Shown: in pieces, positions 2,522 through 57,922 of the stretch | Position numbering within the stretch: position 1 is the stretch's first letter | Layout of the letters: each line of letters begins with the position of its first letter | NCBI GenBank assembly: GCA_022561215.1 | Contig: JADFRQ010000002.1 | Coordinates: 5,594-69,593 of the forward strand | DNA from: Chloroflexota bacterium | GTDB taxonomy: Bacteria; Chloroflexota; Anaerolineae; Anaerolineales; E44-bin32 | Direction of reading: 5' to 3' | Length of the DNA: 64,000 bases | Position numbers and translations under genes: made by a program | Notes under the pieces: generated by a model | Told to the model about the DNA's origin: nothing | Database searches by the model: none | The model's input: only the letters and a program-made list of their open reading frames with translations

Positions 2522-3772
2522 TTAGTCGCACGCATTCGACTGATGTTCTTCAAACGTCATGGAAAAGAAATGGCGACCGGATTGGTCACAGGCAGCTCGA
2601 AAATAAAGGAAGTCGCTTGCGAGCGGAAAGGCGACTGCCCTCATCGCCTCCAAACCCGGGTTAGCAATTGGGCCGGGAGGGAGATCAGGATAGAGGTAGG
2701 TATTAAATAGCGAATCAAATTTTAAATCTTCAAGTGTTAGCGGTGCCTTCCACCAGCTGCCGTCTACCTGCAACCCTAAAGCATACTGTATAGTTGGATC
2801 TGCTTCGAGCTTTATACCCTGCCTTAACCGATTGTAGAATACGGAGGCGATTAATTCTCTTTCATCATCTACCACCGCCTCACGTTCTACGATGGATGCC
2901 AGAATCGCAGCCTGGAACAGATTAATTCCTTGCACGTTGTAACCATTCACGAAATCAGCGCCGATGCGCACTTCAAAATTCTTAAGCATCAATTGCACAA
3001 GTTCATCCGCAGTGATGCCCGAATCGACCAAGTAAGTGTCCGGGAATAGGAACCCCTCCAAGGAAGCAAACGGAGGAAGATATTCCGAAAACGCGTAGCC
3101 AGGAAGCGGACGATCGGCTGCGGTGGCAAATTCAGATTCGGAGATAACAAGCCCTGAAAGGGCGACGGCTTGTGCAATTTGTTCCCTGCGCCAGCCTTCC
3201 AGCACCGTGATTTTAATTTCTTGTGGATTCGCACGTTGAAGCGTATCAGCAATCTCACGCGGGGTCATAGCAGCATGCAGCGAATAAATCCCGGCCTCGA
3301 TCCCCGTATCAAAACCGCGGAACTGCAAATAATTTCGAAGCAACAATTCATTCGTAATAATCTTCGCCTCTTTAAGTTGGGCAACAACGTGCGCTGCATT
3401 TTGGCCTTGTTCGATAACGAGTTCGTGCTGGTTTGAGGCGTTCCCAGCCGGTGTATCGAGATCCTTTGCGAACAAAATCAAGTAGCCCGCAAGATAAATC
3501 CTATCCAGCGGCTCCAAATTAGGTGATGCCGATCCGATAATTATGTCGGCCTCGATGAACCCAAAGGAAACGCCAAACACAATCAGAAGACAAAAACATG
3601 CTGATAACATACCTAGCAGGCCGAGGATACCAAGCCAACGAGTGCTACGTTTTTCTTTTCGCATCCAGATACTCTTGTAGGAATATGGCTGCAGCGCGCG
3701 CATCGATGTTTTCCTTTTTTCTCGATCGGCTGCTCGCAATTTCGGTAGATCCTGTTTCATCCCATGTTTCAA
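2522..3772 (-). CDS. mltG: Endolytic murein transglycosylase MltG (YceG-like)
   Basis: The product has one N-terminal TM helix (WLGILGLLGMLSACFCLLIVFGV). It also carries YceG signatures: VFYNRLRQGIKLEADPTIQYALG and FNTYLYPDLPPGPIANPGLEAMRAVAFP. The longest ORF overlaps ruvX by 128 nt, so the real start is more likely Met37 (MRKEKRSTRW, nt 3664). Confidence 0.85.
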   Translation of the reverse strand: MKHGMKQDLPKLRAADREKRKTSMRALQPYSYKSIWMRKEKRSTRWLGILGLLGMLSACFCLLIVFGVSFGFIEADIIIGSASPNLEPLDRIYLAGYLILFAKDLDTPAGNASNQHELVIEQGQNAAHVVAQLKEAKIITNELLLRNYLQFRGFDTGIEAGIYSLHAAMTPREIADTLQRANPQEIKITVLEGWRREQIAQAVALSGLVISESEFATAADRPLPGYAFSEYLPPFASLEGFLFPDTYLVDSGITADELVQLMLKNFEVRIGADFVNGYNVQGINLFQAAILASIVEREAVVDDERELIASVFYNRLRQGIKLEADPTIQYALGLQVDGSWWKAPLTLEDLKFDSLFNTYLYPDLPPGPIANPGLEAMRAVAFPLASDFLYFRAACDQSGRHFFSMTFEEHQSNACD

Positions 3773-4041: not shown

Positions 4042-5544
4042 TCATTCTTCCCACACATACAGCACATCAATTCTATTGTTTAGCCAGGGTAGCAATGGCA
4101 GCCATGTTGGCTTAAGCAGAAAGGCGGGTGGCCTTTCCAATGGTACGAGTTCCTCAAGATTATCCCGAGCGGCGCCCGGCGTTCTACCGCGAACAGGAGT
4201 GAGCACAGTTTGCTGAGATAAAGGTGTATAGGACTCTGCGCTGCCCTGTATTCGGATCACACCGATCGACTCGTCATCGCTCGCCACATAATTAACCTGG
4301 GTTACCTGGACGGAATTCTTGATGACAATCCGATTTGAATCCAGCTCATCCGTGATGGCCTCCTGGATCTTTGAAAGTAAATCATTAACTCTGTACACCA
4401 ATACCAGTATATTAAGATCCAGAGCAAGCGTAATTTGTTGCGTTGGTTCTCCTTCGCCGTGGCTGAAATCTTGCGAAAAAACGCGGTCGACAGTGGCGCT
4501 ATCCTCAAACACGGCTTGCTCGATCCCTATTGTGACGGCGATCTCATTCTCCGCCCTCCCAAATAATTCCTGGATGAGTTTTTCTTCGAGACCGGCCAGA
4601 TCTGCTGCGCTGACAGAATTTCGTTTTTCGCTGCTTCCCCCACGAATTGGATTTGGATTTGTGATGGCAACCATGAGCCCAAATGCTGCCTCGGTAGAAA
4701 AAATAGTCCCGGAAGGCAGATTGCCTTGTTCGCCAAAATCGTCGGCTTCCATCGGAAGTTCGATCACGGCGCCTATTTCCGCTGGCAATTTTCCGCTGCT
4801 CGTCGTCTGAAATCGTAAAGATTGCAATCCAACTGGACGAATCCCGAGGTGGCGAGGGATGGAGATCATTATCGGAGATAAATTTGTGAAGATGATACTG
4901 CCTCTCGATGCCGATATTGGAAACGTTGCACTCCCGGTCGTTCGGTAAACGGCCGAGCCCTGAATGCGGATTTGCTCAATCTCGGCATGCAATTGACCGG
5001 GTCGTCCATCGAATCCCGTGAGCGCCAGTTCAAAAGTGGCGTATTCCAACTGCTTGGGAGGAGAAAGAATGATTTCGGCAGAGGGAATTACCGCGGCGCT
5101 TAAGACCACGATGATTAGCAACAGTGCACCGAGAAGAATACGGGAAGGTTTTCGATCGAGTTGTTGCACCCAATCGGGGATGCGTTCCCGACGGGCAAGG
5201 ATCACGCCAGGCTGTTGCAGGGAATCCCGCGCCCCTTCCCCGACCCTATCGAATTCCCGAAACAGCCTCCATCGTTCTTCCGGTAGCTCTTCCAAAGATT
5301 CAAAAAGTGAAAATCCTAATTCAGCCGCACGTTGGCGGATTTCCGAATCAAAGGTTAACAGGCCCACCGCAAGATTGCGTCTTTGGGCATAACGTTTGAG
5401 CAGAACAAGATCGAGGCCACGATGCAATACGCGCCCTCGATTGGGCCACACGAGTAAGGCTCTCGGTGATTGCACCCAACCAAGCAAATCGCGGGTCGAA
5501 TCGATGTCGTCACTTGCGCTTAGATAGACAATCTGAACTTTCAT
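4042..5544 (-). CDS. Hypothetical single-pass membrane protein (about 120-aa cytoplasmic N-domain, TM, about 340-aa beta-rich C-domain)
   Basis: A 500-aa ORF is wedged between alaS and ruvX on the same strand, with gaps of 23 and 4 nt. It has one clear hydrophobic helix (ILLGALLLIIVVLSAAVIPSA). I recognise no catalytic motif. Confidence 0.6.
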   Translation of the reverse strand: MKVQIVYLSASDDIDSTRDLLGWVQSPRALLVWPNRGRVLHRGLDLVLLKRYAQRRNLAVGLLTFDSEIRQRAAELGFSLFESLEELPEERWRLFREFDRVGEGARDSLQQPGVILARRERIPDWVQQLDRKPSRILLGALLLIIVVLSAAVIPSAEIILSPPKQLEYATFELALTGFDGRPGQLHAEIEQIRIQGSAVYRTTGSATFPISASRGSIIFTNLSPIMISIPRHLGIRPVGLQSLRFQTTSSGKLPAEIGAVIELPMEADDFGEQGNLPSGTIFSTEAAFGLMVAITNPNPIRGGSSEKRNSVSAADLAGLEEKLIQELFGRAENEIAVTIGIEQAVFEDSATVDRVFSQDFSHGEGEPTQQITLALDLNILVLVYRVNDLLSKIQEAITDELDSNRIVIKNSVQVTQVNYVASDDESIGVIRIQGSAESYTPLSQQTVLTPVRGRTPGAARDNLEELVPLERPPAFLLKPTWLPLLPWLNNRIDVLYVWEE

Positions 5545-8637: not shown

Positions 8638-9207
8638 ATGCAAACGCCTCCGTCATTTCTAACCGCCCCGAAGCGAATTGATGGTGAAGAAATTTTTAGG
8701 CCGGCGAAGGTTTCGCGCCAAGGCGAATTAATCGCATGGGGAAGCGCTTTCGCCATTGGCATCGGGCTCGGCATTTACTACATCAAGACTCAGGAAATCC
8801 AAATCATCACCAGCGGGATGCTCTTTTTTTTCTTATCCGCCGGTGCGTTGATCAGCTTTGGCGCCTGGGTAGATAAGCGAACAATTATTCGTGTCAATTC
8901 CCAACGGTTGATTTATCGGAGCCCATTCAAGGAACTTAACTTGAATTGGGATCAGATCCTTCAGGTTCGCGCCACGCAAGCGCGCCGGCTGTGGCGTATC
9001 ATTGTCGCCAGCAGAGATGCGCACTTTCGCTTGCGGGTCGGCACATCTGCTTCAGAAGAAGAAAATTTGACCGATTTTCTTGCCCTACCCGATGGAGAAC
9101 GGCTGGTTCAGATCATCTCGGGTATGGCTGGCCTTACGCACGTACTCATGGAAGACGATGAGTGGGTGAGCAGCTCAGAAACGTCTTACGAAAGTGGGGA
9201 CAATTAA
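8638..9207 (+). CDS. Hypothetical membrane protein (two TM helices plus a small soluble C-domain, acidic tail)
   Basis: The 189-aa ORF has hydrophobic segments AWGSAFAIGIGLGIYYI and MLFFFLSAGALISFGAW. No known motif was recognised. Confidence 0.5.
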   Translation: MQTPPSFLTAPKRIDGEEIFRPAKVSRQGELIAWGSAFAIGIGLGIYYIKTQEIQIITSGMLFFFLSAGALISFGAWVDKRTIIRVNSQRLIYRSPFKELNLNWDQILQVRATQARRLWRIIVASRDAHFRLRVGTSASEEENLTDFLALPDGERLVQIISGMAGLTHVLMEDDEWVSSSETSYESGDN

Positions 9208-9399
9208 ATCGCGAACATTCCATAGTGTTGTTTAAAAAGCACGCAAATACACTATCAGGCTTTCCGTAACACATCCGGCTGCCCGTACACCTGAGGAAAT
9301 TGCCGAGTATCTTTAAAGAAGTCAGCGATGGCACATCTGATATGCCCTATTAGGAAAGCCCCGCTTTTATTGCGCACAAAGAACCCTGGAGAGATCACA

Positions 9400-10626
9400 A
9401 TGAAAATTAGCGACCAAGTTAATCTGCTTATGCAGGGAACCGAATATGGCGACGAGAAGCTTAAGCAGGCTATGGCGGATGAACTCAAAGACCGTCTCAT
9501 CTTGGCACAAAGTGAGAATCGACCGCTACGCGTCTATTGTGGATTTGATCCACGCACGTCCGATCTGCATATTGGTCACACCGTCCCCATCCGAAAAATG
9601 CGCCAATTCCAGGAGCTCGGCCACGAGGTCATCTTCGTAATCGGCAGATTTACGTCGCTGATCGGAGATCCTTCGGATAAAGATGTCGTGCGCGCACAAA
9701 TAAGCGCTGAGGAAGCGACGCTTAATGCTGAATCCTATGCCCAACAATCGTTCAAGATCTTAGATCCAGATAAAACCAGGGTTGAATACAACGATACTTG
9801 GCTATCGAAACTTAATTTTGCGGATGTCATTCGCCTGGCGCGAAATTTCACTATACAGCAGTTTCTATCAAGAGAAAATTTCCGCAAGCGTTTTGATCAA
9901 GGGGAACCAATCTACCTGCACGAAACATTTTATTCGTTGATGCAAGGTTATGATGCGCTGCACCTGAAAACGGATGTGCAAATCGGGGGTTCCGACCAGT
10001 TATTCAATATCATGACCGCCGCTCGGAAAATTATGAGCGCCAATGGTGAGAAGCCCAATATCGCTATCATCAATGGAATTCTCCCCGGAACAGATGGGGT
10101 GGTGAAAATGAGCAAGTCTCTGGGCAACCATATCCCCCTTAATAGCACCCCCGAGGATATGTATGGCAAGGTGATGAGCGTACCCGACAAAGCGATGGGC
10201 CACTACTTTCGCCTTATCACGCGCTGGTCGCCGGAGGAGATTGAGCAGATCGAGGGCAAATTGGATTCCGGGGACGTTAGTCCGCGCGATATTAAAATGT
10301 CTCTCGCTCACGAAGTGGTGGCGATTTATCACGGTGACCAAGAAGCCGCCGCAGCAGAAGATGAATTTCGGCGCATATTCCAGGAACGAAAAGTGCCGGA
10401 AAATATGCCTAAGGTGGAGATCTCAGGATCGATAGCTCTCTTCAAATTAATGGTTGCCGAAGGCCTGGCAAGCAGCAACAGCGAAGCCCGCAGACTGATC
10501 CAGCAACGCGGTGTGAGTTTGGATGGCAAGGTGATTGACGATATCAAGGCCGAAGTGATGATCGAGACCCCCCAGGTTCTTAAGGTCGGCAAGAGAAAGT
10601 TTATCCAATTGGTGCCGAAATCTTGA
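9400..10626 (+). CDS. tyrS: Tyrosine--tRNA ligase
   Basis: It carries the YCGFDPRTSDLHIGHTVP (HIGH) and VKMSKSLGN (KMSKS) motifs. A C-terminal S4-like domain is present (SNSEARRLIQQRGVSLDGKVIDD). The start is set at ATG 9400, with GGAGAG 7 nt upstream. The track ORF starts at 9328. Confidence 0.9.
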   Translation: MKISDQVNLLMQGTEYGDEKLKQAMADELKDRLILAQSENRPLRVYCGFDPRTSDLHIGHTVPIRKMRQFQELGHEVIFVIGRFTSLIGDPSDKDVVRAQISAEEATLNAESYAQQSFKILDPDKTRVEYNDTWLSKLNFADVIRLARNFTIQQFLSRENFRKRFDQGEPIYLHETFYSLMQGYDALHLKTDVQIGGSDQLFNIMTAARKIMSANGEKPNIAIINGILPGTDGVVKMSKSLGNHIPLNSTPEDMYGKVMSVPDKAMGHYFRLITRWSPEEIEQIEGKLDSGDVSPRDIKMSLAHEVVAIYHGDQEAAAAEDEFRRIFQERKVPENMPKVEISGSIALFKLMVAEGLASSNSEARRLIQQRGVSLDGKVIDDIKAEVMIETPQVLKVGKRKFIQLVPKS

Positions 10627-11138
10627 AGTTCAAGTTGAAAAAGCGCTTTTGAAGGGGACCATTATGTTGATGCCCGGTGCTGAGCCAGCTACCCAACTTG
10701 CCAATACCGCATATCTACGGGTAACCATAACGAGCACTGGAATGCGATGGCCATTCGCTTTGACTAGGGCTGAATCAAAGGGTATTGGAGGGCTTTTGTA
10801 GACAGCCCCTATTTATTGTTGGATGGCGAGTTTCAACCACAACTTTGTTCAGTTACCCGCCCTGGGAAAGCGAGTGTGCGCCCAATAATGGGAACCTGGG
10901 CTATGATGCGCACTGAAAATCCATCGCACATACGAATCGAACTTAATGTTTCGAATTCTGGAGTACCGAAGGTCTGGCTCCTGCCTGTGCTTCGCACAGG
11001 TGGCGCAAGCAGAGGCCAATGCCATGCTCAGGATGCGTACTCCACATTCATCCTACTGTACTCTCGGTCAGGTATGGAAACATGGGCTACGATTATTATT
11101 GCCGCTTGCCCGCACAACCTAAATTTGGATGAAAACCT

Positions 11139-12608
11139 TCACCCCTTTATCACCGCCACCGGGCGTAAGCGGGCTACTTTTTTGGCAATTCCGGCCTGTG
11201 TGACGACGTTTACAACCGCATCCACATCCTTATAGGCGTGCGGGGCTTCCTCGGCCAGACCCGCCATTGAACCCGCATGAATCCGAATCCCTTTTTTCAT
11301 CAGCTGCTTGCGCAATTGATCGCCGCGAATGCTCTTTTTGGCCTTCTTTCTGCTCATCGTGCGCCCCGCCCCATGGCAAGTCGAGCCGAAAGATTGCAGC
11401 ATACTACCTTCGGTTCCGAGTAAAACCCAGGATGCTGTCCCCATGCTCCCCGGCACGAGAACAGGCTGTCCGAGGTGGCGATATTTTTCTGGCAATTCCG
11501 AAAAACCGGGCCCAAATGCGCGCGTGGCGCCTTTTCGATGCACACAGACTCTGACCTGCTTTCCTTCGATCTGATGATCTTCAATTTTTCCCATGTTGTG
11601 GGCAATGTCATAAACTTGAGTGAGCTCGTAATTGGCAACCTTCCCTGCAAACGTCTGTTCAAATGCGCGCCGTGCATGAGAAACCAATACTTGCCGATTC
11701 GCAAATGCATAATTTGCAGCACACGACATTGCCGAAAGGTACGCCTCGCCTTCGGGTGAGTTGAGTGGTGCACATACCAACTCGCGATCGGGCAGTTGAA
11801 TCTTGTATTTTCGCACTGCAGACTGCAAATCGCGCACATAGTCGGAACAAATTTGATGGCCAAAGCCACGCGAGCCGCAATGGATTTGGAGCACAAGATA
11901 TCCTTCACTCAGATTCATCGCTTCGGCGGCTTCATGATCAAATATTTTTTCGACAAGGTCGACTTCTATGAAGTGATTCCCACCGCCCAAAGTCCCGAGC
12001 TGGGAGCGACCCCTTTCCATCGCGCGAGGGCTCACATCGCGTGGATCCGCATTGCGGATGCGCCCATGTTCTTCCGTCGATGGAATGTCATCCTCCCAGG
12101 CATAACCATTATTCAGCGCCCAGTTGGAACCATTCCTGCATACGTCCTCTAGATCATCAACGCTCAAGCGAACACTCCCTTTAACACCGACTCCGCTGGG
12201 ACAGTTTTCGTCGAGCTGCAGGGCGAGGTCATCCAGGTACGGTTCTGCCTCTTCGTACGCTATTTGACTCGCTAACAAGCGCACTCCGCAGTTAATGTCA
12301 TAACCGATCGCGCCAGGCGAAATGACACCTTCGGGGTAAGAGGTCGCCGCTACTCCGCCAATCGGAAATCCATAACCCTGATGGACATCAGGCATCACCG
12401 TGACATGGCTGACGAGTCCAGGCAATGTGCTGGCATTTACAGCTTGGGTGAGCGATTTATCTTTAAGGGCTGCGTTTAGTAGCCGTTCATCTGCAAATAT
12501 TCTTACGGGAACGCGCATATCCTTTCGATAGGTTTTGGGGATTTCCCAGGTCACCGGTCCGGTGCGAACTACATCTCCCTTGTTAATCATTGTGCCAACC
12601 CCTCTCAT
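11139..12608 (-). CDS. rtcB: RNA-splicing ligase RtcB (3'-phosphate/5'-hydroxyl RNA ligase)
   Basis: Recognised motifs are [44 protein letters not shown] and CHGAGR. The start could alternatively be ATG 12590 (MINKGDV). Confidence 0.92.
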
Positions 12609-12638
12609 ACCGAGTCAAGATGATAGTGATGATGTGAT

Positions 12639-12689
12639 GTCATTCTGAGGAACGAAGGCGCTCCCTAAGACGAAGCGCTGAAGAATCTC
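12639..12689 (+). repeat. GTCATTC...GAAGAATC hairpin repeat, copy A (between archease and rtcB)
   Basis: The copy reads gtcattctgaggaacgaaggcgctccctaagacgaagcgctgaagaatctc. It shares both termini with copies at 32875, 47234 (minus strand) and 62626. Confidence 0.7.
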
Positions 12690-12808
12690 GTTTTCCGATG
12701 AAAAATTTCTTGTCATGCGCAAAGAGATCCCCTCGTTCTTTGAAAGGCCTTTGCATCCGCTGCGCTTGGGCTCAGATGGGCACCCATCACATCCGCCATG
12801 ACTGAATA

Positions 12809-13219
12809 CTAGACATCGAATACTACAATCGCCTCCAAACTCCCTCGAGTACCCTTAATCTCCAGTCCATGAAAGGTTACCCCTTTGATTTCTTTCTCGA
12901 TGGAGGAGATAGGGACTTCGGTAAATTTTGATATCAAGCTTGAATTTTCCTCCACAGCAAGCTCCAGGTTGGTTACTCCCACTGAGCGCATTTCAACCCC
13001 GTACAACAGTTCCTCCAGCCAGGCAACGAGCAGTTCTTCAAGATCAAAGGCCTCGAGGTCAATTTTACGATCGAGTCCCCCATCGTCAGCAAGCTTAACA
13101 CCCATTAAATCGAACATTCCAAGAGTGGCACTGTGAAATAGATGGGAAAGCGAAGCACCGTTAATTTGCAAGGCCCAATCCGCGGTGTGTTCAAGTTCAT
13201 AAAATTCGGGGAGTTCCAT
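12809..13219 (-). CDS. Archease (RtcB activator/chaperone)
   Basis: The sequence FYELEHTADWALQINGASLSHLFHSATLGMFDLMG .. KGVTFHGLEI fits the archease pattern and size. The product is 137 aa from ATG 13219. The longer track ORF (to 13318) would overlap the divergent FHA gene. The gene lies directly upstream of rtcB. Confidence 0.8.
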   Translation of the reverse strand: MELPEFYELEHTADWALQINGASLSHLFHSATLGMFDLMGVKLADDGGLDRKIDLEAFDLEELLVAWLEELLYGVEMRSVGVTNLELAVEENSSLISKFTEVPISSIEKEIKGVTFHGLEIKGTRGSLEAIVVFDV

Positions 13220-13225
13220 AATATC

Positions 13226-13231
13226 AGTATA
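13226..13231 (-). promoter_or_regulatory. TATACT -10-like box 6 nt upstream of the archease ATG (leaderless-start candidate)
   Basis: The minus strand reads cataCTATACTgatattATGGAACTC, with no SD in between. Confidence 0.3.
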
Positions 13232-13266
13232 GTATGAATCGAGCTTGTAGAAGCTCGGAGCTCGCG

Positions 13267-13272
13267 TATAAT
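13267..13272 (+). promoter_or_regulatory. TATAAT -10 box 7 nt upstream of the ATG at 13280 (leaderless-start candidate)
   Basis: The sequence is cgcgTATAATccggaacATGGAAAAT. A weak TTGTAG lies 16 nt upstream. No SD is present. Confidence 0.35.
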
Positions 13273-13279
13273 CCGGAAC

Positions 13280-14128
13280 ATGGAAAATGAGTGGAGCCGG
13301 CTTGAAAAGCTTATTCACGGCTCAATTGAAAAAACATTGACCAGTTCTTCAAGCGAAGTCGCCTCCATCGAAACGATCGCGCGTCAACTCACCGAAGAAA
13401 TTTCCTCTTCCGCTCGCCTTGACAAAAAGGGCCGCAGCTATGCCCCAGATCAATATACGCTGAGCTTAAACCCGCTCGACTACGAGTACTTGCGCAAGAT
13501 TGCCCCAAAAACACAGTGGGAACTTTCTGCTGCACTGCTCATTGCTTTTCAGGCCTCGGAACTTTCTTATCTGCAAAAACCGCAAATCACTTTGGCGACA
13601 GATCCCACGCTATCCCGGGAAGAAATTCGCGTCATTGCCTGGCACAGCAGCGATCCGCTGCTATTCAATAACGAATTAGATGATGAACAATCTTCGTCCT
13701 CTGTAGAGGCTCCTGTAGGAGCGTTCCTCATCATCGAAGGGAAGCGCCATTTTCCGCTCGGAGAAAACATCGTGCAAATTGGAAGGCGCTTGGATAATCA
13801 CTTAATTCTTGAAGATCGTCATGTCTCCAGAGCGCATGCGCGTCTCGAAGTAGTAAGCGGCCGTTATCGAATTGTTGATCTCGACTCGACGGCAGGAACG
13901 AGAGTTAACGGCCGTTTAATAAATCGGCATACGCTTCGCCCAGGCGATATCATCTCCATAGCTGCAGTACAGCTGATTTATGGCGAAGATCCTCAAGGAC
14001 CTCCCGAAGTTACCCCGCCGTACAAACCACAGGTAGATAAGGGTCCCCAGCGTGATCAAGTTACTCCCCTCAATTTAGAGGCGACGCACATCAAACCGAC
14101 GGCGCCGTATAACAAAGGCAAGCCATAG
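13280..14128 (+). CDS. FhaA-like FHA-domain protein (DUF3662-like N-domain + linker + C-terminal FHA)
   Basis: The C-terminal FHA core reads IVQIGRRLDNHLILEDRHVSRAHARLEVVSGRYRIVDLDSTAGTRVNGRLI. The N-terminus (LEKLIHGSIEKTL..APDQYTLSLNPLDYEYL) resembles the FhaA N-terminal domain. Confidence 0.8.
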   Translation: MENEWSRLEKLIHGSIEKTLTSSSSEVASIETIARQLTEEISSSARLDKKGRSYAPDQYTLSLNPLDYEYLRKIAPKTQWELSAALLIAFQASELSYLQKPQITLATDPTLSREEIRVIAWHSSDPLLFNNELDDEQSSSSVEAPVGAFLIIEGKRHFPLGENIVQIGRRLDNHLILEDRHVSRAHARLEVVSGRYRIVDLDSTAGTRVNGRLINRHTLRPGDIISIAAVQLIYGEDPQGPPEVTPPYKPQVDKGPQRDQVTPLNLEATHIKPTAPYNKGKP

Positions 14129-14285: not shown

Positions 14286-15068
14286 TTGTCTATGAGAGAT
14301 CCACTTTTACAACTTGAAACCAAACTAAAACATTGGATCGAGGGTTCGATAGAAAAACTTCTAACCCCCAATATTTCCCCGGCTACACTTGCCAGGCACC
14401 TGGCTCTGGCGATGGAGCAAGGTTTGCAAGCCGATGGAAATGGTATTCAGCGCGCCCCAGATACCTATCAAGTATTTTTGCATCCTCAGACACTCGAATC
14501 GCTTAATTCGGTGGCGCCCGAGTTATGTGAAGCTCTTTCGAAAGGGCTCAATAAAATCGCTCTAGGGCAAGGTTTTCGACTGGCGGTTGTGCCCCAAATA
14601 AAACTCCTGCCTGATTCGTCGCTCTCCGAGCGGGAAATTATTGCCAGAGCGGGGCATAAAACCTCACCACTGGATCAGACGCGCGGCTATCGATACGATC
14701 AAATTGAGAATAAATCGAGCATGCCTCCCGGCGCATTTCTCATTGTTGATGGTGGAAAGCATATTGCGCTGACGAAACCAGTGATTAACATCGGACGTAG
14801 AAGCGATAACCAGGTAGTGCTCAATAAGCCACAAGTCTCGAGAATCCACGCTCAGATTCGATTGAAGCAAGGTCGATTTGTGTTGTTTGATGTTGGTTCC
14901 AAGTCGGGAACGTACGTGGACGGTATTCCTGTGAAGCAACACATCCTTCAACCGGGTGACGTAATTACGATCGTCAATATTCCCCTGGTGTACGGGGAGG
15001 AGCAAGAAATAACCCCGGATGAGACCAAACGCTTCCCCCCTGTTCAGCCACGGAAAAAAACCATATAA
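14286..15068 (+). CDS. FhaA-like FHA-domain protein, paralogue 2
   Basis: The architecture is the same as the previous gene. The N-terminus reads LETKLKHWIEGSIEKLL..APDTYQVFLHPQTLESL. The FHA core reads VINIGRRSDNQVVLNKPQVSRIHAQIRLKQGRFVLFDVGSKSGTYVDGIPV. The track start is TTG 14286, and the first ATG is at 14292. Confidence 0.8.
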   Translation: MSMRDPLLQLETKLKHWIEGSIEKLLTPNISPATLARHLALAMEQGLQADGNGIQRAPDTYQVFLHPQTLESLNSVAPELCEALSKGLNKIALGQGFRLAVVPQIKLLPDSSLSEREIIARAGHKTSPLDQTRGYRYDQIENKSSMPPGAFLIVDGGKHIALTKPVINIGRRSDNQVVLNKPQVSRIHAQIRLKQGRFVLFDVGSKSGTYVDGIPVKQHILQPGDVITIVNIPLVYGEEQEITPDETKRFPPVQPRKKTI

Positions 15069-15082
15069 AAGGGCTTTAAGCG

Positions 15083-15547
15083 ATGAATCCAGTTGAAGTA
15101 CTCCTCATTCTTCGCCTGGGAATTGGCGTTTTTCTCATGGGTTTCTTATCGTTATTGCTCATATTCCTCTGGAAGGATCTAAAATCTCCAGACGCGCGGG
15201 AGCAGATGGCGCCCACAGCACATTTGCGCACGCTCGAAGGTGAAAACCTGCAGATTTACTATGCCCTTGAAGAAAATAATCTTCTCGGGCGCGCGGAGGA
15301 CAACACCCTTACGTTTAGCGAGGCAACCGTCTCTGCATATCATGCGCGTCTGTCTTGCCAGCGGGGAATATGGTGGATCGAGGATTTAGGTTCTCATAAC
15401 GGAACACTACTCAATGAAATTCCTGTTACGGAACCGCTAATCCTTGGATTTGGGGATAGCATCCAATTTGGAGGCATAAAATTCGAATTTGCTCCGGGTT
15501 CACCTCCGAGTGCAGGGAATCAATTCGATAATCGAGACCAGAAATAG
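15083..15547 (+). CDS. FhaB-like membrane-anchored FHA-domain protein
   Basis: It has an N-terminal TM helix (LILRLGIGVFLMGFLSLLLIFLW). The FHA core follows: NLLGRAEDNTLTFSEATVSAYHARLSCQRGIWWIEDLGSHNGTLLNEIPV. Confidence 0.75.
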   Translation: MNPVEVLLILRLGIGVFLMGFLSLLLIFLWKDLKSPDAREQMAPTAHLRTLEGENLQIYYALEENNLLGRAEDNTLTFSEATVSAYHARLSCQRGIWWIEDLGSHNGTLLNEIPVTEPLILGFGDSIQFGGIKFEFAPGSPPSAGNQFDNRDQK

Positions 15548-15689: not shown

Positions 15690-16556
15690 ATGAAAGGTAA
15701 TCCATTGCTCGGCATCATCGGTGGCTCGGGACTCTATTCGATGGAGGGCCTTGAATCAATTGAAGAGCTTGAATTGGAAACCCCGTTCGGCCAACCCAGT
15801 TCGCCGGTACTAACTGGCATCTTGAATGGAAAAGCGATTGCTTTTATCTCGCGCCACGGCCGCGATCACCGGCTGTCCCCGAGTGAAATTAACTACCGGG
15901 CTAACATTTATGCATTGAAAAAACTTGGCGTCGTCCAAGTCCTATCCGTAAGCGCATGCGGGTCGTTACGTGAGGATTACGCACCGGGGGATGTTGTAAT
16001 TCCTGATCAACTTTTCGATTTCACGAAGAAACGGAAGAGTACCTTCTTCGATAATGGATTGGTCGCCCATGTTGACGTTGCCGATCCATTTTGCACCCAT
16101 TTTTCCGCTACTGTTGCGGACAGCATTAACAAAGCGCAAGGCACCGTCCATCGTGGGGGAACCGCCATCACGATTGAGGGGCCTCGTTTTTCAACACGGG
16201 CAGAATCGAATACCTTTCGCGCCTGGGGAATGTCCATCATCGGTATGACAACCGCGCCCGAAGCATTTCTAGCACGCGAAGCTGAATTGTGCTACGCGGT
16301 GATGGCACATGTGACCGATTATGACGTTTGGTATCTTGCGCAAGAACCGGTGACGGTTGAAATTGTGCTTCGAATATTAAAATCGAATACGGCACTCGCA
16401 CTGCAAGCGATTTCACATCTGCTGAACCACCTCGATGAAAATCACACCTGTGAATGTACAAATGCACTAAATAGGGCGCTCGTTACGAACCCGCAAAATA
16501 TTCAAGCCGAGACGCGCGAGAGGTTGTCAATTCTTGTCGATAAATACCTTTCTTGA
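15690..16556 (+). CDS. mtnP: S-methyl-5'-thioadenosine phosphorylase
   Basis: The sequence follows the MTAP pattern: LGIIGGSGLY..TPFGQPSS..FISRHGRDHRLSPSEINYRANIYALKKLGV..SACGSLRED..PGDVVIPDQLFDFTKKRKSTFF. Confidence 0.88.
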   Translation: MKGNPLLGIIGGSGLYSMEGLESIEELELETPFGQPSSPVLTGILNGKAIAFISRHGRDHRLSPSEINYRANIYALKKLGVVQVLSVSACGSLREDYAPGDVVIPDQLFDFTKKRKSTFFDNGLVAHVDVADPFCTHFSATVADSINKAQGTVHRGGTAITIEGPRFSTRAESNTFRAWGMSIIGMTTAPEAFLAREAELCYAVMAHVTDYDVWYLAQEPVTVEIVLRILKSNTALALQAISHLLNHLDENHTCECTNALNRALVTNPQNIQAETRERLSILVDKYLS

Positions 16557-19197
16557 TCCGGAAATTGAAATCGACAAGCGCGAGGTTCGGTTGCTTGGGC
16601 TCGCGTTTCTTTTTCTTCTCGCCGTGTCATTCTCCATTGCGATCGCTGCCAGTGTACGAGAAAACGACTGGTTAATTTCGATCGAATCGGTTCGGCATTT
16701 TATTATTTTGCCCGTATGGGCGATCGGAATATTCACCATTGTCCGCAGCCTGCGTAGATATTTTCCGAGCAGAGACCCTTATCTCCTACCGGTAGCCGCT
16801 TTGCTTAGCGGCTGGGGAATGCTGACAATTTGGCGTTTGGATCCCATCTTTGGCGCAAGGCAACTGGTTTGGTTTCTGCTGGCTCTTACCTTATTATTCT
16901 TCATTTTGAGAACCAAGCCAGACCTAAATTGGTTGCGTGAATACCGTTATCTATGGCTATCCGCAGGCGTAATCCTGCTCGCCTCTACCCTAATCTTTGG
17001 CACGAATCCATCCGGCGCTGAGCCACGTTTGTGGCTGGGGTGTTGCGGAATTTACTTTCAACCCTCCGAACCGCTTCGATTGTTGTTGATCGTCTTTTTG
17101 GCTTCCTACTTCGCGGATCGCATGGTATTTCGATGGATCGACAAAAGACCTTCCCTTTTCAGCTCCCTCGCCCCTCTTTTGGTAGTTTGGGCATTCTCCA
17201 TTTCTTTTCTCTTCATCCAGCGCGATCTCGGCACGATGACTCTTTTTATTTTTCTCCTGGCAGTACTGCTGTACATTGCCTCGTCGAGGTGGGAGGTGCT
17301 GCTTGCCGCTGGCCTCTTCACGTTGGCCGGATCTGCTGCGGGGTTTTTCTTTCTCGATATCATTCGTACTCGCTTTGACGCATGGATCAACCCATGGCTT
17401 GACTCAATCGGTGGCTCGTATCAAATCGTGCAGTCATTAATTGCATTAGCCGCGGGCGGAATTATTGGAAGAGGCCCAGGAAACGGCTCGCCTGGCATTG
17501 TGCCCGCTGCACACACCGACTTTATCTTCAGCGCAATTACGGAAGAATGGGGCATGCTGGGTGCTCTGGGTATGATTGCCCTCTTCGCTATTTTCGTCGC
17601 CCGCGGGTTGAAAATCGCTAGCTGCTTGCATTCCCCCTTTGACAAACTGCTTGCCGCCGGTATCGCCGTCGCCATTGGCTTGCAAACCATCATGATTATA
17701 GGCGGCGTGATCCGCTTTCTCCCAATGACGGGGATTACGGTACCGTTTGTCTCCTATGGCGGTTCATCGCTGATTACGAGTTTTGTTGCACTTGGACTCC
17801 TGCTGGTCCTTTCCAATCGTGCGAGCAGAATAGCCGAGAGCTCGCGTCCGCTGCTTGTCACTCAGGCATTTTTCAGTATTGCTTGGGCTTCGCTGGCAAT
17901 TATGGTTGCATGGTGGACAATCGTTCGCGGCCCAGATCTAGTAGCGCGCTTCGATAACCCTCGGCGGGCAATCGCTGAACGCTACTCGCGACGTGGGTCC
18001 ATTCTTGATTCAAGAGGCGAAATTCTCGCCGAATCAGATGACATACGCGGCTCCTATCAACGCACGGTATTATCCGGTTCCTATTCTTCTGTGGTTGGTT
18101 ATCATTCTGCTTTTTATGGGCAAACGGGTATTGAAGCATCGATGGACGATTTCCTGCGCGGGAATACGGGATTCGATCCCCTCCAGTTGGCGACAAGTAC
18201 TTTCCTGAGAGGTTATCCTCCATACGGCCTCGATGTAAGACTTACGCTTAATGCGCAGCTGCAAATTTCCGTAGCGCAACTTATGCAAGGTTCACGAGGG
18301 GCCGTAGTTGTGCTCGACAGCATGAATGGCCGTATCCTTGCCCTGGTCTCATCCCCCAGCTTTGATCCCAATACTCTCGCCGATGATTGGGAGACACTCA
18401 TTGCGCGTCAAGATGCTCCCTTGCTCAATCGTGCCAGTCAATCACAATACCAGCCCGGGATGCTGTTATCTCCTCTGCTGGTTGCCTTGGCCGCAGACCA
18501 GGAGCTGGTTGACATTAACGCTCCCTCAGGCATCCAATTGGAACCCGTCATTTTCCAAGGACAACAATTCGATTGTTCTCAGAGCCCTCCATTGACGAAA
18601 ACCGCAACCTTGGGCAACGCCGTTCGTTATGGATGCCCGGGTCCAATTGTCGAACTCGCTGAACTTCTGGGGGGCGAATGGATTCAGGATGCCCTGGCGA
18701 CCCTGAATTTTTATCAAGCCGTTAAAATCGGGATTGAATCCACAAAGCCCGCGGATCTTGATCCCATACAAAACGGCACAGCTGCGCAATTGGCTGCAAT
18801 AGGGCAAGGTGATTTGACGGTCACTCCTTTGCAAGTGGCGCGCGCATATGCGGCTCTATTCAATCAGGGAATCCTTCCGGTTTTGGAATTAGTCCGATCC
18901 TATCAAAACGCAGATGGGGATTGGGTGGCCTTGGCGGGTGATGAAAGCCCGCATGCGATCCTCAGCGCCGAGGCCACTCAAATCGTTGTGACAGCGGCGA
19001 AAGAGCACCAAGAACTTATTCGTAGCTTCGGCTATCTAGCATCGGCAGGACCCATTGGGGGTAAAATTGCATGGTATCTGGCCAGCGACCGTCAAAATCG
19101 CCTTGTCGTCATCGTACTTGAATCTGATTCAATCGATAGGGCTGAAACAATCGGTCTTGCCGTTCTACAACATCTCAATTCTCCCACAGCGCCTTGA
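16534..19197 (+). CDS. SEDS peptidoglycan polymerase (RodA/FtsW family) fused to a PbpA-like class-B PBP domain with degenerate transpeptidase motifs
   Basis: A single 887-codon ORF. The N-terminal half is multi-pass with PAAHTDFIFSAITEEWG and PFVSYGGSSL. The C-terminal half carries GAVVVLDSMNGRILALVSSPSFDPN, PLLNRA and IGQGDLTVTPLQVARAYAALFNQG. It reads QPGMLLSP, VRYGCPG and ASAGPIGG where SxxK, SxN and KTG are expected. The only in-frame start near the 5' end is TTG 16534, which overlaps the mtnP stop by 23 nt. Confidence 0.85.
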   Translation: MSINTFLDPEIEIDKREVRLLGLAFLFLLAVSFSIAIAASVRENDWLISIESVRHFIILPVWAIGIFTIVRSLRRYFPSRDPYLLPVAALLSGWGMLTIWRLDPIFGARQLVWFLLALTLLFFILRTKPDLNWLREYRYLWLSAGVILLASTLIFGTNPSGAEPRLWLGCCGIYFQPSEPLRLLLIVFLASYFADRMVFRWIDKRPSLFSSLAPLLVVWAFSISFLFIQRDLGTMTLFIFLLAVLLYIASSRWEVLLAAGLFTLAGSAAGFFFLDIIRTRFDAWINPWLDSIGGSYQIVQSLIALAAGGIIGRGPGNGSPGIVPAAHTDFIFSAITEEWGMLGALGMIALFAIFVARGLKIASCLHSPFDKLLAAGIAVAIGLQTIMIIGGVIRFLPMTGITVPFVSYGGSSLITSFVALGLLLVLSNRASRIAESSRPLLVTQAFFSIAWASLAIMVAWWTIVRGPDLVARFDNPRRAIAERYSRRGSILDSRGEILAESDDIRGSYQRTVLSGSYSSVVGYHSAFYGQTGIEASMDDFLRGNTGFDPLQLATSTFLRGYPPYGLDVRLTLNAQLQISVAQLMQGSRGAVVVLDSMNGRILALVSSPSFDPNTLADDWETLIARQDAPLLNRASQSQYQPGMLLSPLLVALAADQELVDINAPSGIQLEPVIFQGQQFDCSQSPPLTKTATLGNAVRYGCPGPIVELAELLGGEWIQDALATLNFYQAVKIGIESTKPADLDPIQNGTAAQLAAIGQGDLTVTPLQVARAYAALFNQGILPVLELVRSYQNADGDWVALAGDESPHAILSAEATQIVVTAAKEHQELIRSFGYLASAGPIGGKIAWYLASDRQNRLVVIVLESDSIDRAETIGLAVLQHLNSPTAP

Positions 19198-20787: not shown

Positions 20788-21507
20788 ATGGTGAGAATAC
20801 GATTAAGAAGAGTAGGCGCTCGTGGCCAGCCATCCTATCGCGTTGTGGCTGCAGATAAGGAAAGTCCGCGCGACGGCCGATTTCTTGAAACCCTTGGGAC
20901 TTACAATCCGCGAACCGAGCCGGCAACCATTAATCTTAACGAGGCGCGCATATTTCATTGGTTAAAAAATGGAGCGCAGCCCTCTGATTCAGTGCTCCAG
21001 ATCATGAAAACGGCCGGTGCATGGCAGCGATGGGAGCGTTTTAAACAGGGTGAAGAACTCGATAAACTTCTCGAGGAGGCTGCCGCTGCTAAAGTTGATG
21101 TCGATCCACGAACCCGAAGAGATGACTTAAGGCAGGTACAGAAGCCAAAGAAGAAAAGCGAGAAGGCAGAACCGGCGCCCGATATGGATGCAGCCGAAGC
21201 TGAACCAGTGGCGGAAGAGAGTGAAGCCACGCCGGATGAAGATGCTGCCAAAGATGAACCTGTGGCGGATGAGAGTGAAGCCGCGCACGATGAAGATGTA
21301 GCCAAAGATGAACATGTGGCGGATGAGAGTGAAGCCGCGCCCGATGAAGATGGAGCCAAACGCGAGAGTGAAGAGCCTTCTGGAGAAGATCCTGATGATG
21401 CCGCCGGAAGCGAATCTTCTGAGGATGAAGAAACCGAAACGGGAGGAGAATCGTCTGCGGCTGGGGACGAGGAAAAGGCTAATAACAGCGCCGCGGAAGA
21501 GAACTAG
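20788..21507 (+). CDS. rpsP: 30S ribosomal protein S16 with about 150-aa acidic repetitive C-terminal extension
   Basis: The N-terminal about 85 aa form the S16 core (MVRIRLRRVGARGQPSYRVVAADKESPRDGRFLETLGTYNP..ARIFHWLKNGAQPSD). The remainder is a D/E/A-rich tail containing 3 tandem 18-aa units. Confidence 0.9.
   Translation: MVRIRLRRVGARGQPSYRVVAADKESPRDGRFLETLGTYNPRTEPATINLNEARIFHWLKNGAQPSDSVLQIMKTAGAWQRWERFKQGEELDKLLEEAAAAKVDVDPRTRRDDLRQVQKPKKKSEKAEPAPDMDAAEAEPVAEESEATPDEDAAKDEPVADESEAAHDEDVAKDEHVADESEAAPDEDGAKRESEEPSGEDPDDAAGSESSEDEETETGGESSAAGDEEKANNSAAEEN
21202..21360 (+). repeat. Three tandem 54-nt (18-codon) in-frame repeats inside the rpsP tail
   Basis: The units start at 21202, 21256 and 21310. 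The consensus is gaacNtgtggcggaWgagagtgaagccRcgcNNgatgaagatgNNgccaaagat, encoding EPVA(D/E)ESEA(A/T)xDED(A/V/G)AKD. Confidence 0.9.
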
Positions 21508-50482: not shown

Positions 50483-52318
50483 ATGTTGAGCGATGAGAAG
50501 GAAGCCCGGCAAAAACTTGGTCGAAAATTAACCCTCGTTCTTCTTCCGTTGGTCCTCATTCCTGCGCTTCTTATCGCTGGAATTGCTTATGGCAATACGC
50601 AATCCGAGTTGGAACACAGAACCAATGAGCAATTGGAAACTGCCCTTCAAGGTCAATTAAGTGTATTGAATGCATTTGTTCTTGAACAAGAAAATTTGCT
50701 CACTCAGCTTGTGATTAGCTCGGCACTCAGGGAGAAATTGATCTCTGCCCTTGGTGATCCGCAGAACAATGACGCTGCGTTGCTGCTTAATAATGAATTA
50801 AAGTTGCTGCAATCCTCTCTTGGAAGCACAAACTCGGCGGGGTTATTCATTCTTAACATGATTAATGGGAAAGTTCTATTTTCGACGGATGATCAATTCG
50901 TTGGTGATGCATTTGTCTTCGAACCACAAATCCTATTTCAAACCGTCCCCCTGGCGAATGACCTTAGATTTGCTTCAAATTCGATTACATTCCTATCCGT
51001 CCTTTCCCTCCAATTGGAGAATTCTATTGAAGGAAATTTTGCTCTGGCAAATATAAGTTCGGCCCGCCGCGTCGAGCAACTGGCCGCTACCATGCATACA
51101 TTCGTATCGAATGACGCTGACGAGCCTACGGCAGCGATCACTTCCTTCATCAGCGTGCGACCAGATATCTACCTGAGACACAATGTGAATGAGCCCCCTT
51201 TTGTGACTTTGAATACCAACGTCGAGCCCGTGTTTGCTGCACTCGATCCCTCGGATCGCGTTCGTTATTTATTTAAGAATGATCAGGGGGAGGAGATATT
51301 CGTAATTGCCCAATGGAGCGCCGCCACGGATATTGCCTTGGGCATCGAAAGCGCAACCGGAAACCTATTCAGCACCAATTCGAGTACGGCGTCCATCCTG
51401 GTCATTAGCATTATCCTGGTAACAACAATTGCCGTGCTGGCCATCCTGGGGGTCACAAATCGGATGTTGCAGCCACTAAGCTCGTTAACTGAACTCGCGC
51501 GGCGAATGACCCAGGGAGATTGGAATTTCCGCGTCGCCGAAGATCGAGATGACGAATTGGGCTATTTAGCAAAATCACTAAACCAGATGGCAAGAGAATT
51601 GGGAGCCCTTTACGAATCTATGGAAAGAAGAGTCGAGGATAGAACCAAGCAGATTCGAATTGCCTCTGAGGTAGCTCGCGCAGTCCTCTCTATCCCCAAT
51701 CTCGATGAGCTGCTGCGCCAGGCTGTCAATTTAATCAAGGATCGATTTGGTTATGATCATGTCTCCATCTTTCTCATCGATAAAGAGGGAAACAATGTTG
51801 TCTTACGAGAATCTTCTAGCGAAGAAAAAGAGGCGCTCAAGACAGTCGGTTATAAATTAAAAATAGGCTCACCATCGATGGTGGGCATGGTGACGGAAAG
51901 CAACGAGCCAAAAATTTTATCAGGGACGAATAATGAACCAGAAATAACAATGGACGAATTGCTTCCTGGAGCGCGTTCCGAGGTTGCAATTCCTCTCCAA
52001 CTGGCCGGCAACTCCCTTGGGGCCCTGGCCATTCAAAGTTACTCGCGCGATGCCTTCAAAACGGAAGATATTGAGGTGCTGCAAACGCTTGCAGATCAGC
52101 TCAGCGCTGCGATTGAAAATGCTCGTTTGGCTCAAGTATCCACAAACGCGGCGGAAAGAGCCCGGCTGGTGAGTGAAATTACCAGCCAGATTAGCGGATT
52201 AAGTGATCCGGGGCAGGTTCTTCACACCACCGCAAAAGCGCTACACAAAGCTTTGGGTGAAGCAGAGATAATAATCAATCTTGTTTCGCCTTCGGATGAT
52301 ATCGAGGATATCGCTTAG
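50483..52318 (+). CDS. Transmembrane sensor-like protein: TM, about 270-aa extracytoplasmic domain, TM, HAMP, GAF, C-terminal half-GAF stub; no output domain
   Basis: TM helices are LTLVLLPLVLIPALLIAGIAY and ILVISIILVTTIAVLAILGV. The HAMP segment is LQPLSSLTELARRMTQGDWNFRVAEDRDDELGYLAKSLNQMAREL. The GAF segment is LDELLRQAVNLIKDRFGYDHVSIFLID..SEVAIPLQLAGNSLGALAIQS..EDIEVLQTLADQLSAAIENARL. Confidence 0.85.
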   Translation: MLSDEKEARQKLGRKLTLVLLPLVLIPALLIAGIAYGNTQSELEHRTNEQLETALQGQLSVLNAFVLEQENLLTQLVISSALREKLISALGDPQNNDAALLLNNELKLLQSSLGSTNSAGLFILNMINGKVLFSTDDQFVGDAFVFEPQILFQTVPLANDLRFASNSITFLSVLSLQLENSIEGNFALANISSARRVEQLAATMHTFVSNDADEPTAAITSFISVRPDIYLRHNVNEPPFVTLNTNVEPVFAALDPSDRVRYLFKNDQGEEIFVIAQWSAATDIALGIESATGNLFSTNSSTASILVISIILVTTIAVLAILGVTNRMLQPLSSLTELARRMTQGDWNFRVAEDRDDELGYLAKSLNQMARELGALYESMERRVEDRTKQIRIASEVARAVLSIPNLDELLRQAVNLIKDRFGYDHVSIFLIDKEGNNVVLRESSSEEKEALKTVGYKLKIGSPSMVGMVTESNEPKILSGTNNEPEITMDELLPGARSEVAIPLQLAGNSLGALAIQSYSRDAFKTEDIEVLQTLADQLSAAIENARLAQVSTNAAERARLVSEITSQISGLSDPGQVLHTTAKALHKALGEAEIIINLVSPSDDIEDIA

Positions 52319-52423
52319 GGGAGGAAGACTCATGCTCGATTGCGTTCACGCCTGCCGCCACTGCTTGTTGGAAGTTCTGCATCGCATCGAATGTGATCGT
52401 ATTCCTGACAGGTAAATTCAGCC

Positions 52424-57105: not shown

Positions 57106-57151
57106 GAAAAAGTTCGAGAACCCAGACATTATCCCCATCCCAAGGACACGT

Positions 57152-57922
57152 ATGACTTACAAAATCGCGGTGGCCAATCAAAAAGGCGGCGTAGCGAAAA
57201 CAACAACGACACTTTCATTAGGTGCCTCATTCACAGAAAATGGATTTAAGGTTCTGCTCATCGATCTCGATCCTCAAGCGAATCTGACATTGGCGCTTGG
57301 TTTTAAGCCAACGGTGCTTGAGGGAGCGATGGGCGATGTGCTCCTCGGCGGAAAAATGCTTTCGGAGATTGTGCTTAAAACCGCGCAAGAAAATCTCAAT
57401 CTCGCGCCGTCCAATGACGAAATGCAACTTGCGGATCGTTTCCTGGGAATGAGGGATAATTTTGAACGAATTCTGCTGGATGCTTTCAACGATGTGCGCG
57501 AGTACGACTATATTCTAATGGATTGTCCTCCAGCGATTGGCCCGCTCACCCAATGCGCACTAACTGCAGCCGATCTTCATATCCTTCCTACGCAATGCGA
57601 GTATTTTTCGGCGCATGCAATTCGATCATCGCTTGCCCTAATACGAGATATCCGCGAAAGGACCAACCCTGCCTTAAGATATCGCGTCCTACTCACAATG
57701 ATCGACTCCTCGAATCAGGTCCATCAAAGCCTTAATCATCAAATTCGAAGAGCATTTAATAACGCAGTATTTGAAACTGAGATTGAAATTGACGGAAAAT
57801 TACGCGAATCTCCTCTCTTCGCAAAACCCATTACGATGTATGCCCCGGAAAGTTTAGGAGCAATCCAGTATCGTCAGTTATCCAGGGAATTGTTAGAAAA
57901 TGGAATCACAGAATCTGCATAA
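57152..57922 (+). CDS. ParA/MinD-family P-loop ATPase (orphan; no ParB nearby)
   Basis: The deviant Walker A reads KIAVANQKGGVAKTTTTLSLGASF. Also present are LLIDLDPQANLT and Walker B-like YDYILMDCPP. The product is 256 aa. Confidence 0.88.
   Translation: MTYKIAVANQKGGVAKTTTTLSLGASFTENGFKVLLIDLDPQANLTLALGFKPTVLEGAMGDVLLGGKMLSEIVLKTAQENLNLAPSNDEMQLADRFLGMRDNFERILLDAFNDVREYDYILMDCPPAIGPLTQCALTAADLHILPTQCEYFSAHAIRSSLALIRDIRERTNPALRYRVLLTMIDSSNQVHQSLNHQIRRAFNNAVFETEIEIDGKLRESPLFAKPITMYAPESLGAIQYRQLSRELLENGITESA

Follow-up and report, generated by a model that had tools for sequence, protein, structure and literature searches.

A SEDS glycosyltransferase joined to a class B penicillin-binding protein that lacks all three catalytic motifs in Anaerolineae-like Chloroflexota

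Can a bPBP, as penicillin-binding proteins of class B are called, be maintained by selection once its cross-linking chemistry has been erased? In the current model these proteins have two separable jobs, the cross-linking of peptidoglycan and the allosteric activation of a SEDS polymerase, and support for this separation has so far come from point mutants. The question is raised by a single gene (16534-19197, forward strand) in a stretch of 64,000 nucleotides (nt) from the Chloroflexota contig JADFRQ010000002.1. We refer to this whole stretch as the window, and all coordinates are positions within it. The gene encodes a SEDS protein and a PbpA-like penicillin-binding protein (PBP) in one polypeptide, in which each of the three transpeptidase motifs, SxxK, SxN and KTG, is replaced. 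The product is likely, in our judgement, to be a RodA-PbpA elongation-type synthase of Anaerolineae-like Chloroflexota, with the PBP a pseudoenzyme that is kept as an activator or scaffold.

The gene is one uninterrupted open reading frame (ORF) of 887 codons with a TTG start, and its N-terminus agrees in length with those of homologues. The protein has three Pfam matches: FTSW_RODA_SPOVE (PF01098) at residues 106-429 (E 5e-74, 249.8 bits against a cut-off of 26.4 bits), PBP_dimer_2 (PF21922) at residues 487-546 (E 2e-11, 44.2 bits against 27 bits) and Transpeptidase (PF00905) at residues 589-792 (E 3e-23, 82.8 bits against 22.1 bits). The last of these spans only profile positions 1-191 of 299. 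An initial annotation, made from the letters of the DNA, had described a covalent SEDS-bPBP pair in a single 887-codon frame. The ORF call, the translation and the Pfam domains confirm this description, and the peptide strings that it quoted are all found in the translation. The SEDS module leads into the single transmembrane (TM) helix of the bPBP through about 10 cytoplasmic linker residues (429-437). In topological terms the fusion is a trivial step: the SEDS C-terminus lies in the cytoplasm and continues directly into this helix, so that the native two-protein topology is kept. An AlphaFold2 (AF2) model of the fused protein, built on 48 homologues, reached a pLDDT of 85 and a pTM of 0.78. 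When this model was searched with Foldseek, the top PDB matches were PbpA and transpeptidase (TP) domains from Coriobacteriia, including 4MNR, with target-normalised TM-scores of 0.77-0.81.

The central observation depends on the alignment register at the three catalytic boxes. A phmmer comparison with the PDB pairs 'NRATQGVYPPASTVKPYV' of Escherichia coli PBP2 with 'NRASQSQYQPGMLLSPLL' of the window protein, which places 'PPASTVKP' opposite 'QPGMLLSP'. We also built a register profile from ten family members, and this aligns end to end with Mycobacterium tuberculosis PbpA (3UN7, E 7e-50). In the profile alignment the PbpA sequence 'PPGSTFKV' stands opposite 'qPGmvlaP', with the Ser falling on M643 and the Lys on S646. 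'KSCNT' stands opposite 'lgCPg', where G700 replaces the Ser and P702 the Asn, and the Cys persists as C701. Finally, 'SKTGT' stands opposite 'AiaGp', where S837 takes the place of the Lys, A838 that of the Thr, and the Gly is kept as G839. As phmmer, the family profile and the predicted structure all agree on the register, the three catalytic boxes are truly replaced. The register that the initial annotation had set by eye, and the motif loss that it read from it, thus stand up to phmmer, profile alignment and Foldseek; SxxK, SxN and KTG were not seen at the catalytic positions in the alignment to 3UN7. With the nucleophilic Ser, both Lys and the Ser and Asn of SxN gone, the penicillin-binding fold would be unable to make 4-3 cross-links and should not bind beta-lactams.

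The same losses are found throughout the relatives of this protein. We compared 350 of these, namely the 120 closest (90% clustering), the 150 best representatives (50% clustering) and 80 loci from GTDB species. The 120 closest are all fused and all degenerate, and the 150 representatives are a mix of proteins of about 880 and about 450 amino acids (aa), again all degenerate. Not one of the 350 shows SxxK, SxN/D or K(T/S)G where these motifs should align, nor is there an S..K within about 10 residues of the former SxxK site in any of them. Nearer relatives with intact motifs are absent from both the best 150 (50% clustering) and the best 120 (90% clustering). Where the nucleophile once stood, the residue is hypervariable (T, A, G, L, M, S, P or E), as expected if no nucleophile is needed there, and the former SxxK Lys position is never Lys in the aligned relatives. 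A representative search returned 404 clusters at 50% identity with E <= 1e-30, which makes the family of SEDS proteins with degenerate PBPs a large one. In the NCBI taxonomy the 80 species-representative genomes belong to the Anaerolineae, Ardenticatenia and Ca. Limnocylindria. Judged from these alignments, the motif loss is family-wide and old.

The SEDS half has kept the hallmarks that the initial annotation claimed for it. The conserved aspartate D329, in 'HTDFIF', aligns with D255 of Thermus thermophilus RodA and is invariant among the 48 homologues; the 6BAS variant sequence has A at the D255 position. E179 and R182, in 'FQPSEPLR', are also kept and are invariant. The best PDB matches of this half are T. 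thermophilus RodA (6BAR, 1.8e-35), E. coli RodA (3e-30) and FtsW (8e-28). This ranking, together with the PbpA-type PBP and the FHA synteny described below, suggests that the SEDS half is of the RodA type. As a separate observation, a near-invariant Cys pair, C170-C171 ('WLGCCG', window positions 17041-17046), lies in the SEDS extracellular loop just before FQPSE. It falls within residues 158-173, the only internal low-confidence segment of the AF2 model, and T. thermophilus RodA has no Cys at this position.

How strongly is each part of the protein constrained? The ratio of nonsynonymous to synonymous substitution rates (dN/dS), calculated by the Nei-Gojobori method, is 0.05-0.07 for the SEDS module. 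For the TP-like region, unsaturated pairs give 0.08-0.17, the window gene compared with its 84%-identical relative gives 0.32, and one near-identical pair that has few substitutions gives 0.39. These values are above that of the SEDS module and far below 1. Mean pairwise identity declines from 0.60 in the SEDS module to 0.51 in the pedestal and 0.38 in the TP-like domain, and of the 35 PBP-half positions with a conservation of at least 90% in the broad family, 15 fall in the 119-residue pedestal. By these sequence measures the pedestal is the best-conserved part of the PBP half, which fits an activator role.

The conserved residues of the TP-like domain are structural (P608, N632, R633, G642, P765, W797, W847, E863 and C681/C701). 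The domain retains its fold, the 'PLLNRA..YxPG' lead-in, the cysteines of the beta-hairpin and the SxN box, and the 'aWF' strand. C701, the middle residue of the former SxN box, is 100% conserved, and C681 is its probable disulfide partner, by analogy with M. tuberculosis PBPA, where a disulfide connects the middle SxN residue to a beta-hairpin over the cleft (PMC9974482). The active M. tuberculosis enzyme carries the same Cys (S-C-N), so that C681/C701 is a structural trait passed on by descent rather than a new nucleophile. The initial annotation had held that the PBP half survives only as an activator or scaffold. The conservation of the pedestal agrees with the activator part of this claim. 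The word 'only' is harder to sustain, as purifying selection acts on the TP-like domain too and its Cys pair is kept, and it probably still does something.

The fusion is not the only arrangement in this family. The same fusion, without stops, is present in 58 of the 80 species-level loci, and in a further 19 the degenerate PBP is a separate gene adjoining the SEDS gene. These split loci typically show an ATGA stop/start overlap from SEDS to PBP (e.g. L036, L040, L049, L053 and L065 of our locus set), and their PBP gene begins just ahead of the equivalent TM helix. The overlap shows that both halves form one cognate pair, translated together. Most of the split-gene loci come from Ardenticatenaceae, Promineifilaceae and related metagenome-assembled genomes (MAGs). 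A neighbour-joining tree of the PBP halves shows that the fused and split states are structured by clade, with two large fused clades and sporadic fused members within split clades. It follows that fusion or fission occurred several times, in PBPs that had degenerated beforehand. The co-occurrence of fusion and motif loss that the initial annotation had raised is therefore not specific to the fusion: the split loci carry a degenerate PBP as well, and the pseudoenzyme state is older or broader than the fusion.

A sceptical reader may ask whether the ORF is an artefact, with a sequencing error joining two genes, or whether the PBP half is decaying neutrally as a pseudogene. The TP-like dN/dS is 2-5 times that of SEDS and one related locus is frameshifted, both of which would favour such a reading. 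However, an independent assembly, the ENA contig ERZ27267425:k141_917725, differs at only 6 nt over 11.8 kb of the region; 2 of these differences lie inside the SEDS-PBP gene, both are synonymous, and the protein is identical. The fusion is thus not an assembly artefact. The ORF is likewise uninterrupted in the 84%-identical relative, which comes from a separate run (Logan SRR8436516). Neutral decay is also hard to reconcile with the 58 stop-free fused loci, with a dN/dS far below 1 in every comparison, or with a family of more than 400 clusters at 50% identity and E <= 1e-30. The independent assembly, the dN/dS values and the stop-free loci rule out both an artefact and a decaying pseudogene for practical purposes, and contradict the join of two genes by sequencing or assembly error that the initial annotation had named as its own possible undoing. 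In the frameshifted locus, L014, which belongs to a MAG labelled 'Chloroflexia', the SEDS-PBP gene is split into three overlapping ORFs (8761-11264 of that locus). This break is probably a frameshift error of assembly and not a real pseudogene.

The TP-like domain could still be an enzyme with new chemistry, either through the C701 thiol as a nucleophile, on the model of L,D-transpeptidases that use a Cys, or through another peptidoglycan-modifying reaction. Such an enzyme would account for the purifying selection on the domain and for the 99-100% conservation of C681 and C701, the latter a residue of what was the SxN box, at the active-site cleft. That said, the same Cys forms a structural disulfide in the active M. 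tuberculosis PbpA and is hence inherited, the cleft has no conserved Ser, Lys or His (S606, Y639 and E863 are the only conserved polar residues), and the former nucleophile position is hypervariable. We have rejected a new Cys nucleophile as the principal explanation because of this inheritance from the PbpA S-C-N disulfide, and new chemistry in general strikes us as very improbable. The domain may instead be a ligand sensor or docking platform, which would bind un-cross-linked stem peptides, or bring in a separate transpeptidase or hydrolase, and gate SEDS via the pedestal. This would refine the activator reading rather than displace it, since the pseudoenzyme would become a regulatory receiver in place of a passive scaffold. 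The cleft architecture is kept (the NRA..YxPG lead-in, the disulfide of the beta-hairpin and the strand with W847), purifying selection acts on the domain, and studied bPBPs pass a conformational change from the pedestal to SEDS (PMC6207328). The variability of the former catalytic cleft positions speaks against one conserved ligand contact there, and in this specific form we consider the proposal rather unlikely.

SEDS-PBP fusions have been seen before. The initial annotation knew of no characterised example of the arrangement, and for the fusion this does not hold. A 2025 survey (PMC12516126) counts 117 InterPro chimeras of SEDS and transpeptidase (TPase) domains, which it names 'bifunctional bPBPs' and treats as putatively bifunctional, with a 931-aa fusion from Senegalimassilia faecalis, of the Coriobacteriia, as an example; PDB entry 4MNR and an engineered RodA-PBP2 protein add further cases. 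The window protein is like the surveyed chimeras in having glycosyltransferase and TPase domains in one polypeptide. Unlike a truly bifunctional chimera, it is without the TPase catalytic residues. Neither SxxK nor a catalytic serine is mentioned in the survey, and the two passing references to Chloroflexota in its main text do not concern fusions.

The closest natural comparison is with the Coriobacteriia. PDB entry 4MNR is the TP domain of a SEDS-PbpA fusion from Eggerthella lenta, and a 719-aa fragment that is 100% identical to it contains PF01098, PF21922 and PF00905, together with 'SDFIFAAIAEEIG', PGSTFK, SSN and KTGT. The parent fusion therefore has intact motifs, and a fusion of this type is both known and able to be catalytically competent. 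The Coriobacteriia fusions share with the window protein the domain order of SEDS, TM helix, PBP_dimer_2 pedestal and transpeptidase fold, and their TP domains are the best sequence-profile and structural matches to its PBP half. The TP domain of Atopobium parvulum (4JBF/4N1X, crystallised with penicillins) is also a close structural match, compared as an isolated domain. In contrast to the window protein and its 350 relatives, from which all three motifs are missing, the Coriobacteriia fusions, at least that of E. lenta, keep PGSTFK, SSN and KTGT. Our full-text literature searches for a natural class B PBP family lacking all three motifs, which extended to SEDS fusions of Chloroflexi and to PBPs of Anaerolineae, found no description of one, only the general fusion catalogue and engineered mutants. 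Within the searched literature the fusion is already known, and the natural loss of all three bPBP motifs appears to be the new element.

Laboratory work shows how such a protein may function. An engineered E. coli FLAG-RodA-PBP2 fusion largely restored rod shape in a pbpA-rodA deletion and polymerised lipid II in vitro, and the PBP2 pedestal binds and activates RodA (PMC6207328). In Bacillus subtilis PBP2B and Clostridioides difficile SpoVD, catalysis is dispensable while the protein is still required for SEDS activation (PMC12713402). Catalytically dead bPBPs of this kind (B. subtilis PBP2B and C. difficile SpoVD S311A) support SEDS without catalysis of their own if another enzyme cross-links. 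The laboratory systems have one residue changed, whereas the window family is natural, extends over several classes and has had all three motifs erased.

Further evidence comes from the neighbouring genes (Table 1). The SEDS-PBP gene is the last of a co-directional run, FhaA-FhaA-FhaB-MTAP-SEDS/PBP, where MTAP is S-methyl-5'-thioadenosine phosphorylase, and its start overlaps the end of the MTAP gene by 23 nt. Of the 80 loci, 71 have MTAP as the immediate upstream neighbour of the SEDS gene and 49 have FhaA/FhaB genes upstream, and wherever FHA genes are present MTAP follows FhaB. Many related loci have one FhaA copy only, and in some clades no FHA gene lies closer than 10 kb. A methionine-salvage enzyme is in this way locked into a cell-wall operon. 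By analogy with actinobacteria, the conservation of the FhaA-FhaB-MTAP-SEDS/PBP operon suggests that Ser/Thr phosphorylation controls the system via the FHA proteins.

The actinobacterial counterpart has the full order fhaA-fhaB-pstP-rodA-pbpA-pknA-pknB. The M. tuberculosis cluster has, like the window, FhaA_N/FHA and FhaB-like genes lying upstream of those for SEDS and PBP, and its PbpA shares the short PbpA-type pedestal and the S-C-N Cys with a beta-hairpin disulfide. There are also clear differences. The window has MTAP where M. tuberculosis has pstP, and no adjacent pknA/pknB. M. tuberculosis RodA and PbpA are two genes, and PbpA is active and acylated by beta-lactams; in the window the two are fused and the PBP is catalytically dead. 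Actinobacterial rodA and pbpA share an operon with pknA and pknB (PMC3601408).

With these comparisons in mind, we propose the following mechanism. The SEDS module, whose catalytic residues are intact, would polymerise lipid II into glycan strands, while the TM helix and the PbpA-type pedestal would bind this module and activate it allosterically, as in the laboratory systems. Cross-linking would fall to another enzyme, such as a class A PBP, another bPBP or an L,D-transpeptidase. The TP-like domain that is still in place is probably a non-catalytic module, for example one for stem-peptide or glycan-strand binding or for partner docking. The presence of MltG/YceG (2522-3772) shows that the organism makes peptidoglycan. 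A bolder form of this proposal would extend to whole classes of Chloroflexota (Anaerolineae, Ardenticatenia and Limnocylindria). In these, SEDS would be permanently paired, by fusion or coupling, with a pseudo-transpeptidase and would be insensitive to beta-lactams, cross-linking would be wholly delegated, possibly to L,D-transpeptidases or class A PBPs, and the dead domain would serve as a peptidoglycan-sensing or partner-docking regulator. We offer this extension tentatively, as it is in our view slightly more apt to fail than to hold.

Several observations weigh against the proposal of a RodA-PbpA synthase with an activating pseudoenzyme. Searched by hmmsearch with the family profile, the ORFs in the window and the 80 loci (about 1.4 Mb) gave the gene itself and no second PBP or transpeptidase. 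The TP-like domain is under clear purifying selection, for which a pure spacer would have no need, and it may have a further function. About 30 of the 80 loci have no FHA gene in the surrounding 10 kb, and neither a Ser/Thr kinase nor a PP2C phosphatase was found among the scanned window ORFs of at least 150 aa. Finally, the assignment of the SEDS half to RodA rather than FtsW comes from slightly better PDB scores and from synteny; the NCBIfam models score it slightly higher for FtsW (243 bits against a cut-off of 337.5) than for RodA (213 against 336.7), and neither cut-off is reached.

Table 1. Features of the SEDS-PBP gene and its neighbourhood (window coordinates)
Feature	Position	Strand	Basis
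RtcB RNA ligase and Archease pair	11139-13318	-	divergent from FhaA operon
FhaA-like protein 1, first operon gene	13280-14128	+	Pfam FhaA_N 7e-13, FHA 9e-17
FhaA-like protein 2, tandem paralogue	14286-15068	+	Pfam FhaA_N 3.5e-13, FHA 3e-19
FhaB/FipA-like small FHA protein	15083-15547	+	Pfam FHA 2.6e-15; NCBIfam FhaB_Rv0019c 68 bits, below 125-bit cut-off
MTAP (S-methyl-5'-thioadenosine phosphorylase)	15690-16556	+	TIGR01694 307 bits, above 275-bit cut-off
Shine-Dalgarno-like GAGAGG	16518-16523	+	10 nt upstream of TTG start, read from sequence
Whole fused ORF, 887 aa: SEDS, TM, pedestal, TP-like domain	16534-19197	+	ORF call, Pfam, ENA assembly
SEDS (RodA-like) glycosyltransferase module, residues 1-429	16534-17820	+	PF01098, PDB match to RodA
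Codon of conserved SEDS aspartate D329, 'HTDFIF'	17518-17520	+	aligns with T. thermophilus RodA D255
Single bPBP TM helix, residues 438-464	17845-17925	+	AF2 helix
PbpA-type pedestal, residues 467-585	17932-18288	+	PF21922
Transpeptidase-fold pseudoenzyme domain, residues 586-880	18289-19173	+	PF00905, Foldseek
Former SxxK box, now M643-L644-L645-S646	18460-18471	+	E. coli PBP2 and M. tuberculosis PbpA alignments
C681, beta-hairpin region	18574-18576	+	99% conserved
Former SxN box, now G700-C701-P702 (PbpA: S-C-N)	18631-18639	+	profile alignment
Former KTG box, now S837-A838-G839	19042-19050	+	profile alignment, PbpA 'SKTGT'

The rest of the window contains some features that are worth recording. 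Upstream of the FhaA operon, the RtcB-Archease pair is conserved next to it in 23 of the 80 related loci; the small ORF at 12809-13318 (-), which we considered as a member of the system, was rejected because it is the Archease, the activator and partner of the adjacent RtcB. This pair and, downstream of the SEDS-PBP gene, ffh-rpsP-rimM are unrelated housekeeping genes. The ribosomal protein S16 encoded here (20788-21507, +) has 239 aa, with the S16 domain at residues 8-66 only and a long C-terminal extension, and similarly long forms occur in related loci. Between 36000 and 46000 the G+C content is 0.54-0.56, compared with about 0.49-0.51 elsewhere in the window. This segment hosts a minus-strand block with a branched-chain amino-acid ABC transporter, an ornithine cyclodeaminase-like protein and a DAO oxidoreductase, and it may be a horizontally acquired island. 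In the region 50483-60170 (+), genes for three large HAMP/GAF-repeat proteins (611, 746 and 813 aa) precede those for a ParA/MinD-like ATPase and for a hybrid histidine kinase that carries GAF, PAS and receiver domains; the region has the look of a signalling cluster. Three ORFs had no Pfam match at the thresholds used, at 4042-5544 (-, 500 aa), 8638-9207 (+, 189 aa) and 61176-62351 (-, 391 aa).

What would this mean for the biology of these bacteria? The family is a natural experiment in which the cross-linking chemistry was erased long ago, and in which the protein, and especially its pedestal, is still selected beside SEDS or fused to it. The family also cautions that the SEDS-TPase chimeras that have been counted from domain databases as 'bifunctional' are not all so. 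If our reading is correct, this would be the first natural family of bPBP pseudoenzymes, as far as the searched literature goes, and the activator role alone would suffice to maintain a bPBP. It would also be a SEDS machine that beta-lactams cannot hit directly. Filamentous Chloroflexota, common inhabitants of sludge, sediments and soils in large numbers, would then need another route to cross-link the glycan strands that come from this machine.

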